NCBI GenBank assembly: GCA_016208975.1
Contig: JACQXA010000004.1
Span: forward strand, 681,015 to 745,014
From: Nitrospinota bacterium
GTDB taxonomy: Bacteria > Nitrospinota_A > UBA7883 > JACRLM01
DNA: 64,000 bases
Direction of reading: 5' to 3'
This document shows, piece after piece, positions 3,879-58,459 of the stretch. Every line of letters starts with the position of its first letter. The stretch's first letter is position 1. The position numbers and the translations under genes are program-made. The notes beneath the pieces were generated by a model that ran no database searches, was not told where the DNA came from, and saw only the letters and a program-made list of their open reading frames with translations.

Positions 3879-4844
3879 ATGGCCACCTCCGGTAATAGCG
3901 GCGACAAAAAACCATTCGAAGTCCCGCCACCCAGTATAACCTTCGCGGGAATTATCGAATCCGCCCCGGATTTCGTTATCGCCTACATCCTGCTGGTGTT
4001 CTGGATTACCCCCATGGCGGTGTCGCCTCATCTGTCGCCTGTCCGGGTGGAGGCCATAATCACGCTGGAGTTTTTCGCCATCCTCTCCGGCTGGTTCATG
4101 AGTTTCGCATTCATGCTTTTCAATTCTCCGGTTCTTCGATATATCGTCACCGGAATGCTGGCTTACGTTTTTGTTATCGGATTCGGCTCGGATTTCGCGC
4201 GGTTGAGCGGCGAGGCGTGGCCCATCCTTTCATTGCTTGGGCTGATGATAAACAGGGCCACCGCCGCCCTGGCCACAAGGGAGGAGGCCCGGGGAGCGTT
4301 CCTGTTCGCCTGGTCGATCCTTCATTTTTTAATGATGATGGGCGCGTTCATGATACAGGCGCCGTTTCCAATCCCCGATTTGGGGCTGACACCGGAGGCG
4401 GTGAAGGAAATGGCGCTGGTAAATCCGCCGCTGACGGCCCATGCGGCCGAGAGCATGGCCCATCCGGATAAATACATGGCATGGACGTTCTTATATTTCG
4501 CCATATCCGGCGCCGTAACCCTGTTTTACCTTGGCGGATTGAAGGAGCGAGTAGAGACTCACATGGGCGATCCCGCCAGGAACGTCTCCACGGACGGGGA
4601 AAAGCTGTGGACTTTCGGCCAGCAACTGGCGGCGGTGGTGATATTGACGATAGCCTTGATCTGGATGTTCGATCCGTTAAGCCAGCCTCGAAAAGCATCC
4701 AGGTCCGAAGAGGCTCCATGGCGCGCAGAGGAAGCCTTAAAGCTTCATCAAGACAACCTGGAAAGGATCGGGAAGGAATCCGCCACACGTGAACGACGCG
4801 CCTTGGAAAAAGCCCAACGCAATAGACAGAGACTTGGTTATTAA
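3879..4844 (+). CDS. Hypothetical polytopic membrane protein with charged C-terminal tail
   Basis: Multiple hydrophobic helices in translation; no family recognised. Confidence 0.55.
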   Translation: MATSGNSGDKKPFEVPPPSITFAGIIESAPDFVIAYILLVFWITPMAVSPHLSPVRVEAIITLEFFAILSGWFMSFAFMLFNSPVLRYIVTGMLAYVFVIGFGSDFARLSGEAWPILSLLGLMINRATAALATREEARGAFLFAWSILHFLMMMGAFMIQAPFPIPDLGLTPEAVKEMALVNPPLTAHAAESMAHPDKYMAWTFLYFAISGAVTLFYLGGLKERVETHMGDPARNVSTDGEKLWTFGQQLAAVVILTIALIWMFDPLSQPRKASRSEEAPWRAEEALKLHQDNLERIGKESATRERRALEKAQRNRQRLGY

Positions 4845-4849
4845 AAACC

Positions 4850-4999
4850 GGCAGTGTCCCGGTTTGATAACATGGGATAGATTCTTCGCTTGCGCTCAGA
4901 GTGACAACATAAAAAACCTTTGATACATTCTTATCCTGAACATAGCGTAAGCGAAGTGGATGTCTGTCCATTAATCGGGATTAAAACCGGGACACTACC
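4850..4999. repeat. MITE-like palindromic repeat, divergent copy A
   Basis: Terminal inverted repeats ggcagtgtcccggttt ... aaaccgggacactacc; internal cttcgcttgcgctcag / agcgtaagcgaag arms shared with copies at 38536 and 56918. Confidence 0.5.
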
Positions 5000-5055: not shown

Positions 5056-5132
<77 letters not shown>

Positions 5133-37555: not shown

Positions 37556-38407
37556 TTATTGGGCCGGTTGGGATTCGGCGGCTTTTTTCGCGGCCTCCTC
37601 CATCTTTTTCTTTTCGGCCTGGATCTCCCGCCGGGATCCGCGTTTTCTTTCCACTTTTTCTTCTTCGGCTTTCACCGGTTGGGCTGGAGCGGTTCCAGGA
37701 GCTATCGCCTGCCCCGGAGCCCCGGCCTGTTTGCGCGGCCTGGGGACAACCTTGTGGTAAATACCCTCTTCCGGCGTTTCGTCTTCACCAGGGGCTGGAA
37801 CCCGCTCGTTATACGCCCAAACGATGCGATAGTTATAACCGGCTATTTCTTCCGGATGCAGGTTTATCTCATATTCAACTACGGCGGTTTCACCCGCCTC
37901 CAGCCGGTCCGGTTTTTTCTTCCCGCCGTCAAATTCGATGGCCAGGTCCGCCGCCCTTCGGGCTTCCACATGGAAAAGTATAAGGTCCAGCCGCAAACCA
38001 TCCACGGGATATTTGAAGTTGTTCTTCAGGGTGGCCCGGAGCAGGGCAAGGCCGGTCATGGTGTTTTCTATTTCCAGTTCCCCCACCATCTCCACGCCCT
38101 TGTCTTTTTCAGGCGCTTTTTCTTCGGCCTGCCCGTTCTCCCCATTGGCCACCCCCTCGCCGTTTTGAGCGGAGCCATTTGCAGGCGCTTCATTAACCGG
38201 GGCTTCCTCCTCCAGCGGAGGGCGCACATATTTCTCTGGAGCTACTACTTCTTTTTTTTCTTTAACCTTGGGTGGGGCGGAGTATTGGCTGTCGCCGTAA
38301 TGGGCCTGGCCTTTCTCATCCACCCACTTGTAGATACCCTGGGCGAGGGCCGGAGTGGGAAAACTAAGCGCGGCCGCCAACCCGGCGGCGATAACCTTTT
38401 GTTTCAT
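37556..38407 (-). CDS. DUF4124-domain secreted protein with charged low-complexity tail
   Basis: Signal peptide then GIYKWVDEKGQAHYGD motif; 6 nt upstream of radA. Confidence 0.7.
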   Translation of the reverse strand: MKQKVIAAGLAAALSFPTPALAQGIYKWVDEKGQAHYGDSQYSAPPKVKEKKEVVAPEKYVRPPLEEEAPVNEAPANGSAQNGEGVANGENGQAEEKAPEKDKGVEMVGELEIENTMTGLALLRATLKNNFKYPVDGLRLDLILFHVEARRAADLAIEFDGGKKKPDRLEAGETAVVEYEINLHPEEIAGYNYRIVWAYNERVPAPGEDETPEEGIYHKVVPRPRKQAGAPGQAIAPGTAPAQPVKAEEEKVERKRGSRREIQAEKKKMEEAAKKAAESQPAQ

Positions 38408-38535: not shown

Positions 38536-38686
38536 TAAAAAATGGGGTGGTGTCTCAGTTTGAATCTCAAATAATAGACAGATCCTTCACTTCGCTTGCG
38601 CTTCGCTCAGGATGACAATGTTATCAACGGCTGTTATATTGTCATTCTGGGCGTAAGTGAAGAATCTCCCCTGTACTTTCAAACTG
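38536..38686. repeat. MITE-like palindromic repeat, copy B
   Basis: 151 bp; terminal inverted repeats ggtggtgtctcagtttgaa / ttcaaactgagacactacc; near-identical to copy at 56918. Confidence 0.55.
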
Positions 38687-38822
38687 AGACACTACCAAAA
38701 ACGGCCACACATGTTACTAAAACCGGTTTTAGTGATAGAATGCCCTGATATTCAGAAGGTTGTGGTGGTTAATAGTGGCGCATCCAGCGCCTGCGAGATT
38801 TACTTAAATTCCTGGAGGAGCC

Positions 38823-39209
38823 ATGTCCGATTTTAGCACCCTTCTTGCCGTCAAAGACCTTATGAAACCGGAGATAGTGACGGCTTCCCATAACACAAGC
38901 GTTGAAGAAGCCGCAAAAACCCTGACGGAGAAGGCCATTTCCAGCATAGTCATCACCGACGATAACGGACACATAGCCGGCATCCTCACCGAAACGGAAA
39001 TAGTGCGCAACGTGGTAGCGAAAAGTTTAAACCCCGCCGCCACCAAGGTAAGCCAGGCCATGAACCCCGATGTCCAGCGAATCAATGGCGACACTTCCAT
39101 TTTCGACGCGCGCCACAAAATGGTGGAGCTGAACGTGAAGCATCTGGTGGTGGAGATTGGGGGCAAACCAGTGGGGCTTATTTCCTCTACCGCCCTGCTG
39201 GGTTCATAG
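38823..39209 (+). CDS. CBS-domain protein
   Basis: 128 aa with tandem CBS-like segments. Confidence 0.75.
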   Translation: MSDFSTLLAVKDLMKPEIVTASHNTSVEEAAKTLTEKAISSIVITDDNGHIAGILTETEIVRNVVAKSLNPAATKVSQAMNPDVQRINGDTSIFDARHKMVELNVKHLVVEIGGKPVGLISSTALLGS

Positions 39210-55835: not shown

Positions 55836-56345
55836 TTAGTTCTTGCCTTCTTCGGGCAATGGCCAATGGTCAAAATACATCATGGATGTTTTTTTGAACT
55901 CCCTGGTGGAGAAGAGGACGTCGTAGTCTTTTATCCCCGTCTCTTCGGCCATGCGTTTGGCTATCTGTTTCACCTCGTCTTCCGACTCCCCGTGGATCAT
56001 GGTGAACAGGTGGAACGGCCAGTCCTCAAACGACGGGCGCTCGTAGGCGTGGCTCACCTCGGGCCGGTTGGAAAGAAGCTCCCCAAGCCGCTGGCGGTCC
56101 GCCGCGTCGGGAACGCTCCACACCCCCATGCCATTGGCGGTGAAACCGGCTTTCTGGTGACGGAGGGTTGCGCCAAACCTTCTATAATATTTCTTCCCGG
56201 CGTACTCCCTGGTCTTGGCGATAACATCTTCTTCGGCGATTCCCAGTTTATCGGCGATGGACTTGAAGGGGTTCTTCGTCATGGGCAGGCTCCGCTGAAG
56301 CTCGGCCATTATCCTCACGTCGTAAGCGGTGATCTCTTTTTTCAT
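55836..56345 (-). CDS. Siroheme decarboxylase subunit, AhbB/NirH-like (Lrp/AsnC fold)
   Basis: HAYERP...WPFHLFTMIHG block typical of the NirDLGH/AhbAB family. Confidence 0.7.
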   Translation of the reverse strand: MKKEITAYDVRIMAELQRSLPMTKNPFKSIADKLGIAEEDVIAKTREYAGKKYYRRFGATLRHQKAGFTANGMGVWSVPDAADRQRLGELLSNRPEVSHAYERPSFEDWPFHLFTMIHGESEDEVKQIAKRMAEETGIKDYDVLFSTREFKKTSMMYFDHWPLPEEGKN

Positions 56346-56346
56346 C

Positions 56347-56844
56347 TTACGCCACCTCCTCCAACTCTCCGGCCTTCTCCTTGAACTTGAAGTCCACCTT
56401 TATCTTGAACTTCTTTATCATGGGCATGTTCCTCACGGGCCCATAGCCGGAGTCCCGCTCTATCTCGCTCAGTGTCTTGTCCACCGTCCCGGTGTCCGGC
56501 GCGATAAGGGTGAACCACAAGTTGTATTCGTGGTTGCGCTGATAGTTGTGGGTGACGCCCGGATAACGGCTCACAACCTTGGCCACGTCGCCAATTTTAT
56601 CCTGCGGCACACGCATGGCGCACAGGGTGGAGGTCCAGCCCAGCCCGCGGCTGTCGAAGCTGGCGCCTATACGGCGAATGATGCCGGTGTCGTAAAGTTT
56701 CTTGACCCTCCCAAACGCCTCGTCCTCGCTTACGCCGATCTCCGCGCCTATGATGGCGTAGGGGGCGTGATCCACGGGGAACCGGGTTTGGATAATGTTC
56801 AGGATTTTCCTGTCTATCTCGTCCATCGGTAAAATACTCCGCAA
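56347..56844 (-). CDS. Siroheme decarboxylase subunit, AhbA/NirD-like (Lrp/AsnC fold)
   Basis: N-terminal HTH (LDRKILNIIQ), NYQRNHEYNLWFTLIA block; 1 nt from partner gene. Confidence 0.7.
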   Translation of the reverse strand: MRSILPMDEIDRKILNIIQTRFPVDHAPYAIIGAEIGVSEDEAFGRVKKLYDTGIIRRIGASFDSRGLGWTSTLCAMRVPQDKIGDVAKVVSRYPGVTHNYQRNHEYNLWFTLIAPDTGTVDKTLSEIERDSGYGPVRNMPMIKKFKIKVDFKFKEKAGELEEVA

Positions 56845-56917
56845 ACAGCCGTTAATGTATCCGAAAGGATTTTATTTTAATACACTGGAGCCAAAAGGTA
56901 AAAGCAAGGAAGCTGGC

Positions 56918-57068
56918 GGTGGTGTCTCAGTTTGAATCTCAAATAATAGGCAGATCCATCACTTCACTTGCGTTTCGCTCAGGATGACAATGTTATCAAC
57001 GGCTTTTATATTGTAATTCTGGGCGTATGTGAAGAATCTCCCCTGCACTTTCAAACTGGGACACTACC
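56918..57068. repeat. MITE-like palindromic repeat, copy C
   Basis: 151 bp, near-identical to copy B with the same terminal inverted repeats. Confidence 0.55.
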
Positions 57069-57079
57069 AAGCCGGCGCT

Positions 57080-58459
57080 TCATTCCAGCCCGATGCCGCT
57101 TTGGGCCACAAGCTCGGCTTTCAACTCTTCCACCATGGCCGGATTGGCGGCGGCCAGGTTGGAGGTCTCGCCGGGGTCGCGCGACAGGTCGTAAAGCTCC
57201 GCCTTCCCCTCCGTGTCCGCGATCAGCTTGTAACCGCTTTTTATTATGGATAGCTCCTTGGTGGCTCCGCCCACCTGCTTGTAATAAGACAAGACCGGGC
57301 GATCTTCATAATTCACTTCGCCGGTATTCTCCATGATGGGCATCAGGCTTTTTCCGTCCACCCCCTCGACTGCCATCCCGAGGTAATCCAAAACCGTCGG
57401 CATTATATCGACAGACCGCACATATTCCGTTATTTCGCGGCCCCGGTCCTGGTTGGGCAGTTTGATAATCAGGGGGACATGCACCAGGGAGTTGTATAAC
57501 CCGTTTGACTGGCCGCCATGGGCGAAATACTTTTCATGGTCGGCGTTGTTCTCGCCATGGTCGGCGGTGATTATAAGCATCGCCTTGTCATAAAGCTTTT
57601 TCTCTTTGAGGAACTCTATGAAGCGGCCTATCTGGCAGTCGGCGTTATTTATCTCCGCGTCGTAGGCGGCGGTGTAAACGCGGGCGTCCGTATAATAACC
57701 GCCGCTGGCGGGACTGCCGAGAATCTCCCTGATGCCATAAGGTATCCTGTTGTAGTAAAGCAGGCCCATGCCGCCGTCGCCAGACTCGCCGAAATCCGAC
57801 ATCAACCGCTCCGGAGCCGAGATGAAAATCTCGTCGCCCACATAATCCGGGAAGAAATCGTTATTCGCGTCATATGGCCAGTGGGGCGCTAAAAGGCCGA
57901 TGAACATGAAGGTCTTTTGGTTCGACAGGTCGTGGCTGTCCAGCCATTCTATGGCTTGGTCCATGGCGGTGGCGTCACGGGTGTCTATCCCGTTCTCCGC
58001 CGAAGCGTACATATACTTATCCGAGAAACCGTTATGTAACGGCTCCACAAAAGCGTTGGTCTGCACCGAAACCGTGAGATAACCTTTTTCCGCAAGATAC
58101 TCGGGCAGTATCTTTCCGGTAAACGCTGATCCGTTGCGGTCGTTCATTTCATGATTGAAGGCATGTTTGGATAGCAGGATGGAGGCAAAAGATGGAAGCG
58201 TCCATGGGGCCGGGCTGATTGCGTTGAGGAAAACCATGGACTTTGGCGCAATGGATTCCAGGTTTGGGGAGGTGGCTCTGGCGTAACCGTGGATGGAAAG
58301 GTGGTCGGAACGCAACGTATCCACCACTATGAAGAAAATATGCGGTTGTTCCTCTTTGTTGAACACATAGGGCCCTTGGCTGTTGGATGACCCCCGTTCA
58401 CACGCCGGGGCCGCGGCGATTATCAGGGCGACAATAAGGTTGACGGCGATCCGCATCAA
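57080..58459 (-). CDS. Sulfatase-superfamily (alkaline-phosphatase-like) enzyme lacking the canonical C/S-x-P-x-R motif
   Basis: Signal peptide, metal-binding IFFIVVDTLRSDH block, ADHGE block; Thr-Leu-Pro-Ser-Phe where sulfatases carry Cys-x-Pro-x-Arg. Confidence 0.75.
   Translation of the reverse strand: MMRIAVNLIVALIIAAAPACERGSSNSQGPYVFNKEEQPHIFFIVVDTLRSDHLSIHGYARATSPNLESIAPKSMVFLNAISPAPWTLPSFASILLSKHAFNHEMNDRNGSAFTGKILPEYLAEKGYLTVSVQTNAFVEPLHNGFSDKYMYASAENGIDTRDATAMDQAIEWLDSHDLSNQKTFMFIGLLAPHWPYDANNDFFPDYVGDEIFISAPERLMSDFGESGDGGMGLLYYNRIPYGIREILGSPASGGYYTDARVYTAAYDAEINNADCQIGRFIEFLKEKKLYDKAMLIITADHGENNADHEKYFAHGGQSNGLYNSLVHVPLIIKLPNQDRGREITEYVRSVDIMPTVLDYLGMAVEGVDGKSLMPIMENTGEVNYEDRPVLSYYKQVGGATKELSIIKSGYKLIADTEGKAELYDLSRDPGETSNLAAANPAMVEELKAELVAQSGIGLE

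Follow-up and report, generated by a model that had tools for sequence, protein, structure and literature searches.

What are the near-identical palindromic repeats of 151 bp that lie in a 64,000-nucleotide stretch of the genome of a Nitrospinota bacterium (the window, hereafter), and how might they have come to be there? The first-pass annotation of this DNA described two such elements and offered two readings, that of a mobile element of the non-autonomous kind and that of a family of structured RNA/regulatory repeats. Both elements, here called copies A and B, are present as claimed: they are 94% identical (142 of 151 positions in an ungapped alignment), and their likeness ends at the boundaries of their terminal inverted repeats (TIRs; Table 1). 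Copy B had been located exactly, whereas copy A had been placed 10 nt too low, at 38536–38686. The inverted termini are 19 nt long in both copies (GGTGGTGTCTCAGTTTGAA/GGTAGTGTCYCAGTTTGAA), with one or two mismatches between the arms. The left terminus reads GGTGGTGTCTCAGTTTGAA in A and in B, and the reverse complement of the right terminus reads GGTAGTGTCTCAGTTTGAA in A and GGTAGTGTCCCAGTTTGAA in B; seen from the other side, the reverse complement of GGTGGTGTCTCAGTTTGAA is found at the right end with one mismatch in copy A and two in copy B. These termini, too, withstand scrutiny, as the window contains four matches at three mismatches or fewer, against 0.00 expected from 100 dinucleotide-preserving shuffles. 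Both copies are indeed intergenic. Their G+C contents (43.7% for A and 43.0% for B) are 13 points lower than that of the window (56.3%), and, with stop codons in all six frames within the element, there is no coding capacity in 150–151 bp.

The prediction that more copies would be found is borne out within the window itself by a third, diverged copy, copy C, which is inverted with respect to the other two. It was found by a script that pairs approximate TIRs, and then with an nhmmer profile built from the three copies, to which A, B and C are the only matches in the 64 kb. Copy C is 70–73% identical to A and B, and it is also present in three Logan assemblies. Besides their ends, the three copies have in common a 113-bp interior and a length of 150–151 bp, at three unrelated sites. 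The TIRs of copy C (GGTAGTGTCCCGGTTTTAA and GGCAGTGTCCCGGTTTGAT) both carry the same two substitutions, T10C and A12G (GTGTCCCGG versus GTGTCTCAG), and hence the ends co-vary. RNAalifold counts these substitutions as compensatory pairs; such co-variation matches the prediction of recognition by one protein, and it preserves the hairpin equally. For the detection of further members of the family, we propose GGTRGTGTCYCRGTTT as a probe, beside the three-copy HMM. Both copy C and the 8-bp repeats that flank every copy had been overlooked in the first-pass annotation.

Table 1. Location of the window repeats, their parts and flanks, and of related features elsewhere. Plain coordinates are window positions; L numbers denote other loci in the analysis.
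Feature	Location	Strand	Details
Repeat copy A	38546–38696	+	151 bp; TIRs 38546–38564 and 38678–38696; nhmmer E 1.5e-50
Repeat copy B	56918–57068	+	151 bp; TIRs 56918–56936 and 57050–57068
Repeat copy C	4850–4999	−	150 bp; in opposite orientation to A and B; nhmmer E 8e-45
Left target-site duplication, copy A	38538–38545		AAAAATGG
Right target-site duplication, copy A	38697–38704		AAAAACGG; 7/8 match to left
Left target-site duplication, copy B	56910–56917		AAGCTGGC
Right target-site duplication, copy B	57069–57076		AAGCCGGC; 7/8 match to left
Flanks of copy C			TAAAAACC/CTAAAATC; 5/8 in register, 6/8 with a 1-nt shift
Palindromic core, copy A	38580–38665
Palindromic core, copy B	56952–57037
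Similar cores at other loci	L018 6633–6713; L101 3812–3890; L103 1374–1436; L110 1205–1325; L140 1800–1975; L142 3380–3530; L143 1720–1840
TIR-bounded element, Asaia MAG	L101 3783–3913		131 bp
Example elements with the same ends	L016 3724–5789; L082 1956–4129; L132 1055–5278
Gene for ~80-aa basic protein	L016 3881–4126; L082 3801–4064		also in 11 other full-length elements
Ends of Logan contigs	L121 1–27; L138 end = window 38573; L139 end = window 56945

The check for target-site duplications, which had been proposed earlier as a means of recognizing a mobile element, gave a positive outcome at A and B and a weaker match at C (Table 1); the chance of a flank match of at least 7/8 is 3.8e-4 per site. 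The flank repeats are imperfect at all three window copies. The copies themselves have diverged by 6% (A versus B) and by ~28% (C versus A or B), and this divergence is spread evenly over the TIRs, the subterminal region and the core. The window copies are old insertions, whose duplications have decayed in proportion to the divergence of the copies; as flank decay tracks copy divergence, the pattern fits old insertions that drift neutrally, and the copies are probably decaying neutrally in intergenic DNA.

The 19-nt end is by no means confined to the window. A scan of one genome per GTDB species with GGTRGTGTCYCAGTTTGAA gave at least 120 loci, and a scan of IMG/VR with the same 19-mer also gave at least 120. 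Among the matches listed, the GTDB hosts comprise Acidobacteriota, Alpha-, Beta-, Gamma- and Deltaproteobacteria, Bacteroidota, Binatia and Verrucomicrobiota, and further Chloroflexota, Planctomycetota, Bacillota, Actinomycetota, Nitrospirales, NC10, Kryptoniota and a CPR lineage; there is no Nitrospinota locus among the 120 GTDB matches listed. A comparison of 134 ends reveals that conservation stops after position 19–21. Plus- and minus-strand TIRs at four mismatches or fewer were then paired where an 8-bp flank repeat matched at 6/8 positions or better. The GTDB loci yielded at least 45 such pairs, including window copies A and B, and thus at least 43 external elements (41–4,790 bp), 29 of them with perfect duplications; the IMG/VR loci yielded at least 35 pairs (277–3,838 bp), of which 33 have perfect duplications. 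Taken together, there are at least 78 duplication-validated elements with these ends outside the window, or at least 80 counting A and B, and they range from 41 bp to 4.8 kb. An example is the 4,224-bp copy on the Hoeflea plasmid NZ_CP011481, in which both the TIRs and the duplication, GATGATTG, are perfect. The occurrence of the 19-mer in pairs bordered by 8-bp flank repeats identifies it as the terminus of a transposable element whose insertion duplicates 8 bp of target.

Beyond the TIRs, few relatives of the window repeats came to light. No parent IS sharing subterminal sequence past the TIR is seen among the ~240 loci listed, and the sole whole-length relative is a weak match (E 1e-4) to the TIR-bounded element of an Asaia MAG. 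A scan of metagenomes with a subterminal 21-mer specific to the repeat, CTCAGTTTGAATCTCAAATAA, returned five matches, all of them unrelated coding sequences (SQFESQIK), and no predicted protein matched a profile of the peptides encoded by the repeat in a comparison with 5.8 billion proteins. Several other genomes have their own MITE families bearing these ends, as exemplified by L037 and L066 in one alphaproteobacterial chromosome.

The nature of the transposable element is indicated by its larger representatives. All validated elements of at least 2 kb in the genome sample carry a transposase of ~300 aa, or a fragment of one, that is 54–68% identical to two queries taken from L016 and L082; the elements below 1.5 kb are without an intact transposase gene. 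In L016 and L082, the transposase is a single ORF of ~295–304 aa with an N-terminal helix-turn-helix (HTH). The two proteins score 25.1 and 35.5 bits against the Pfam family DDE_Tnp_IS1 (PF03400; gathering score 24.1), and their best match by far is the NCBIfam model transpos_IS1 (NF033558), with 59 and 66 bits and E values of 1e-16 to 1e-18. Since this is the best match and yet falls below the curated cut-off of 100, the proteins appear to represent a divergent clade and not the IS1 equivalog itself. On plasmids of Acidiphilium, Hoeflea and Mesorhizobium, PGAP gives the name 'IS1 family transposase', and among the relatives, which form at least 8000 clusters at 90% identity, those that are named (NCBI, JGI, UniRef) are likewise called IS1 family transposases. 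No Nitrospinota name appears among the best 120 of the at least 8000 clusters, and a transposase homologue is found neither in the 64-kb window nor in the 9 kb upstream of it. We also weighed Tn3-derived TIMEs, the IS6 family and the IS1595 family as sources of the ends, and rejected them, as the linked transposase matches IS1 best.

Additionally, 13 of the 18 elements of at least 2 kb have a gene for a basic protein of ~80 aa at the end opposite the transposase. The protein has the motif ..GGKARA..LS.E.R.EIA.KAA.ARW and no Pfam match; possibly, it assists the element by binding DNA. At the basic-protein end, visual inspection often reveals a TTGAC box 10–15 nt inside the TIR.

How closely does this clade resemble IS1 itself? 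Members of the IS1 family duplicate 8–9 bp of target and, in the ISfinder description, have ends of the form GGnnnTG. The ends of the window repeats begin GG-nnn-TG in the same way, and their duplication is 8 bp; moreover, the parent elements have ends in GGTGGTG or GGTAGTG together with 8-bp duplications, in line with that family. The IS1 of R100 is 768 bp long, with IRL GGTGATGCTGCCAACTTACTGAT and IRR GGTAATGACTCCAACTTATTGAT; the right TIR of the window repeat shares 11 of 19 positions with IRR, GGTA.TG.CTC among them, and in both elements it is the same G/A difference that sets the left end apart from the right. There are also clear differences: the window repeats encode nothing and measure 151 bp against 768 bp, and the related full-length elements have one unfused ORF of ~300 aa in place of the InsA/InsAB' organization of classical IS1 with its programmed −1 frameshift, which the parent elements, with their single ORF, do not display. 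Unlike IS1, these full-length elements often possess the small basic protein gene and cargo, and they are 2–4.8 kb in length. The parent clade is, therefore, of the IS1 family in the broad sense defined by the DDE model, the type of end and the length of the duplication, but it is not classical IS1. It resembles, we presume, the single-ORF and ISMhu11-type members of the IS1 family in ISfinder, which have passenger genes. Its near-invariant end, GGTAGTGTCTCAGTTTGAA, is kept in viral contigs and in over a dozen phyla.

As the TIRs of the window elements are the same as those of elements encoding an IS1 transposase, and as 8-bp duplications accompany them, we conclude, at a probability of roughly 0.88, that the window repeats are three copies of a non-coding, non-autonomous IS1-family MITE with the ends of this IS1 clade. 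Thus, of the two readings offered originally, that of a non-autonomous mobile element is upheld by the IS1-type 19-nt ends, the 8-bp flank repeats, the lack of a transposase in the window and the existence of a third copy. The elements have the following features by which MITEs are recognized: they are smaller than ~300 bp, non-coding, bounded by TIRs, flanked by a duplication of fixed length, present in several copies and endowed with TIRs common to a transposase-encoding element. An IS1-family DDE transposase, whose gene either lies in another part of the genome or was once a resident or a visitor there, would presumably have acted on them in trans: it would bind both TIRs via its N-terminal HTH domain, synapse the ends and insert the element by cuts staggered by 8 bp, and repair of the gaps would then give the 8-bp target-site duplication. 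Such steps are established for IS1-type DDE transposases.

The surroundings of the three copies have little in common. Copy A lies between a DUF4124 gene (37556–38407, −) and a CBS-domain gene (38823–39209, +). Copy B is situated between the stop of a sulfatase gene (57080–58459, −) and the start of a NirD/AhbA-like gene (56347–56844, −), 11 nt downstream of the stop codon of the former and 73 nt upstream of the start of the latter. Copy C is found 5 nt past the stop of the ORF at 3879–4844 and 56 nt before tRNA-Met (5056–5132), upstream of the promoter-like site of this tRNA gene. Sigma-70-like sites occur inside two of the copies: ATGACA-17-TATATT (10/12) at 38612–38640 (+) in A and at 56984–57012 (+) in B, and a further site in A at 38645–38618 (−), all of them matches to the consensus only. 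They arise from the arms of the inner palindrome and, in copy A, face both flanking genes.

Each unit can be folded from end to end into one long hairpin, as had been claimed along with its palindromic interior. As DNA, copy A has a folding energy of −36 kcal/mol (z −8.1), copy B of −26.3 kcal/mol (z −4.7), and copy C a z score of −4.6; as RNA, copy A reaches −68.6 kcal/mol (z −9.2). For A and B, none of 200 shuffles folded as well. The RNA folding energies of the two strands are −68.6/−64.1 kcal/mol for A, −59.2/−45.6 for B and −54.6/−55.8 for C, with no consistently preferred strand. The centre of the hairpin is a two-tier palindrome, in which outer arms (GATCCTTCAC/GTGAAGAATC) enclose inner arms (GCTCAGGATGACA/TGTCATTCTGGGC). 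This architecture is recurrent, with outer arms GCGTCCTTCGAC/GTCGAAGGACGC, inner arms GCTCAGGATGAGG/CCTCATCCTGAGC, and variable spacers and loop; the arm motifs are ..TCCTTCGAC../..GTCGAAGGA.. for the outer and GCTCAGGATGA../..TCATCCTGAGC for the inner tier. Within IS1-type TIRs, it is found in the Asaia element; without such TIRs, it occurs in three IMG/VR contigs and in one MAG each of the Methylacidiphilales, the Deltaproteobacteria and the Stellaceae. Outside the window, 0.91 Mb of genome loci contain six occurrences of the 11-mer of the inner arm, where ~0.45 would be expected; the 11-mer is absent from 1.08 Mb of TIR-containing viral loci. A general association of the core with IS1-type TIRs was considered and is not claimed: the four core hairpins in the genome loci all lie within ~600 nt of a TIR, but there are none in the 1.08 Mb of TIR-containing viral loci, and some viral cases are without TIRs. 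We found neither an Rfam family nor a paper for the core palindrome, which we take to be a possible source of the common spurious peptides 'RFAQDD/APQDE/VILSEAK'.

Could the repeat serve, in the main, as a structured RNA or as a cis-regulatory hairpin, and resemble transposon ends only in a secondary way? Under this heading, we include a small RNA, a 3'-end stabilizer or terminator, and a promoter cassette. The idea draws on the great stability of the RNA hairpin of copy A, on the retention of a hairpin in the diverged copy C with three compensatory pairs, on the location of B and C just past stop codons, and on the promoter-like ATGACA-17-TATATT in A and B, which in copy A points at the CBS gene; nevertheless, we judge it improbable. 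The covariance analysis of aligned copies that had been suggested as a check did produce the three compensatory pairs, but two of them fall in the TIRs, where recognition by a transposase explains them equally well. Rfam has no match to the repeat at the gathering score, at which the only matches in the window are two tRNAs, nor at E ≤10, where there is nothing beyond a chance match of 12 bits. No terminator-like site is present at A, B or C, the copies show no consistent strand preference in folding, and decay is uniform over the TIRs, the subterminal region and the core. Both orientation and neighbouring genes differ between the copies; transcription from the promoter-like site within copy B would enter the sulfatase gene in antisense; and homologues of the CBS gene in relatives (56–75% protein identity) have other neighbours and no such element, an observation that bears only against a role as a conserved leader. 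With no Rfam match, no consistent strand bias and no conserved gene association, there is nothing in favour of a dedicated RNA function, so that the structured RNA/regulatory reading of the first-pass annotation gains no support, and local exaptation, though conceivable, is not indicated.

Two further explanations concern the route by which the repeats spread. They might belong to a REP-like or other palindromic class dispersed by different means (a RAYT/Y1 transposase, or recombination), with IS1-type ends that are coincidental or acquired, and it is true that the two-tier core also occurs in MAGs and IMG/VR contigs without IS1-type TIRs. We think this highly unlikely, as the three window copies end exactly at IS1-type TIRs and have 8-bp flank repeats, a hallmark of the IS1-clade elements that is unexpected for REP/RAYT; the copies cease to be alike at the TIR boundaries, and the Asaia MAG has a MITE in which these ends enclose a core of this kind. 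Alternatively, the copies might be remnants left by in situ deletion within separate full-length IS1-family insertions. Deletion-type derivatives of all sizes from 0.5 to 1.5 kb, with the same TIRs, are known from other genomes, but three unrelated sites that share one 113-bp interior and one length, 150–151 bp, contradict independent deletions and make this scarcely credible.

Given the preferred reading of the repeats as IS1-family MITEs, the core may nonetheless be a separate repeat class that was captured by the MITE lineage. A bolder version, which we hold to be rather unlikely, is that IS1-type ends disperse a captured palindromic cassette conserved across phyla, which is also present by itself in Verrucomicrobiota, in Alpha- and Deltaproteobacteria and in IMG/VR contigs, and that the parent IS1 clade is itself perhaps an uncatalogued group of transposons; the traits that may set such a group apart are its cargo, the near-invariance of its 19-nt end and the gene for a small basic protein, which is conserved and lies at the far end. 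Were it true, the cassette would be a functional module not described before, either a protein-binding site or a structured RNA, with a biology of its own. If the core proves functional, the MITEs would be the vehicles that spread it.

MITEs that share their ends with an IS have been described before, namely, RUP (IS630-Spn1), Nezha (ISNpu3), Correia/NEMIS and MITEAba12; the TIR-identical IS need not be in the same genome (PMC2229807, PMC3184786, PMC6382973). The window MITEs resemble RUP, Nezha, Correia and MITEAba12 in being ~100–200 bp long, non-coding, mainly intergenic, bounded by TIRs and duplications, and able to form a long hairpin; they differ from these in having IS1 as the parent family and a duplication of 8 bp as opposed to TA. 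The whole word 'IS1' does not occur in a 2024 review of prokaryotic MITEs or in the 2011 review by Delihas, and a literature search on the TIR, the core motif and IS1-derived MITEs found nothing relevant, the ISfinder reviews lying outside the scope of both statements. The Caulobacter CcrM-associated intergenic repeats (CIR) are ~110 bp long and conserved between species, with paired arms and no TIRs (PMC2229807). They resemble the two-tier core seen here and in the alphaproteobacterial loci, in a comparison of descriptions and not of sequences; a relation of CIR or RIME to the core is a lead only.

The window MITEs are a real yet ordinary kind of mobile DNA, and only the core palindrome and the breadth of the parent clade might repay further work. 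Their recognition accounts for three intergenic hairpin repeats as relics of transposons, and it counsels caution against annotating such hairpins as small RNAs or small ORFs. More widely, a single IS1-family clade, with its 19-nt ends spread over more than a dozen phyla and viral contigs, has repeatedly given rise to non-autonomous derivatives of 41 bp to 1.5 kb, and the combination of GGTRGTGTCYCAGTTTGAA with an 8-bp duplication provides a simple and specific marker for annotation.

The MITEs also explain why short-read assemblies of this Nitrospinota population break where they do. Logan contigs from the same groundwater population end 27–28 nt inside A and B, from both flanks, in four to six samples, as expected for a repeat. 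No empty site is seen in these contigs, which either stop inside A or B or carry C, and the nearest relatives are at most 75% identical at the protein level and without synteny. Directly downstream of copy B, at 55836–56844 (−), are two adjacent NirD/NirL-like genes of the siroheme decarboxylase AhbA/B type and, after them, a gene for a PfkB kinase. Between copy B and the first of the NirD/NirL-like genes, there is a native promoter-like site (56902–56874); given this position between MITE and gene, the insertion of copy B did not obviously displace it.
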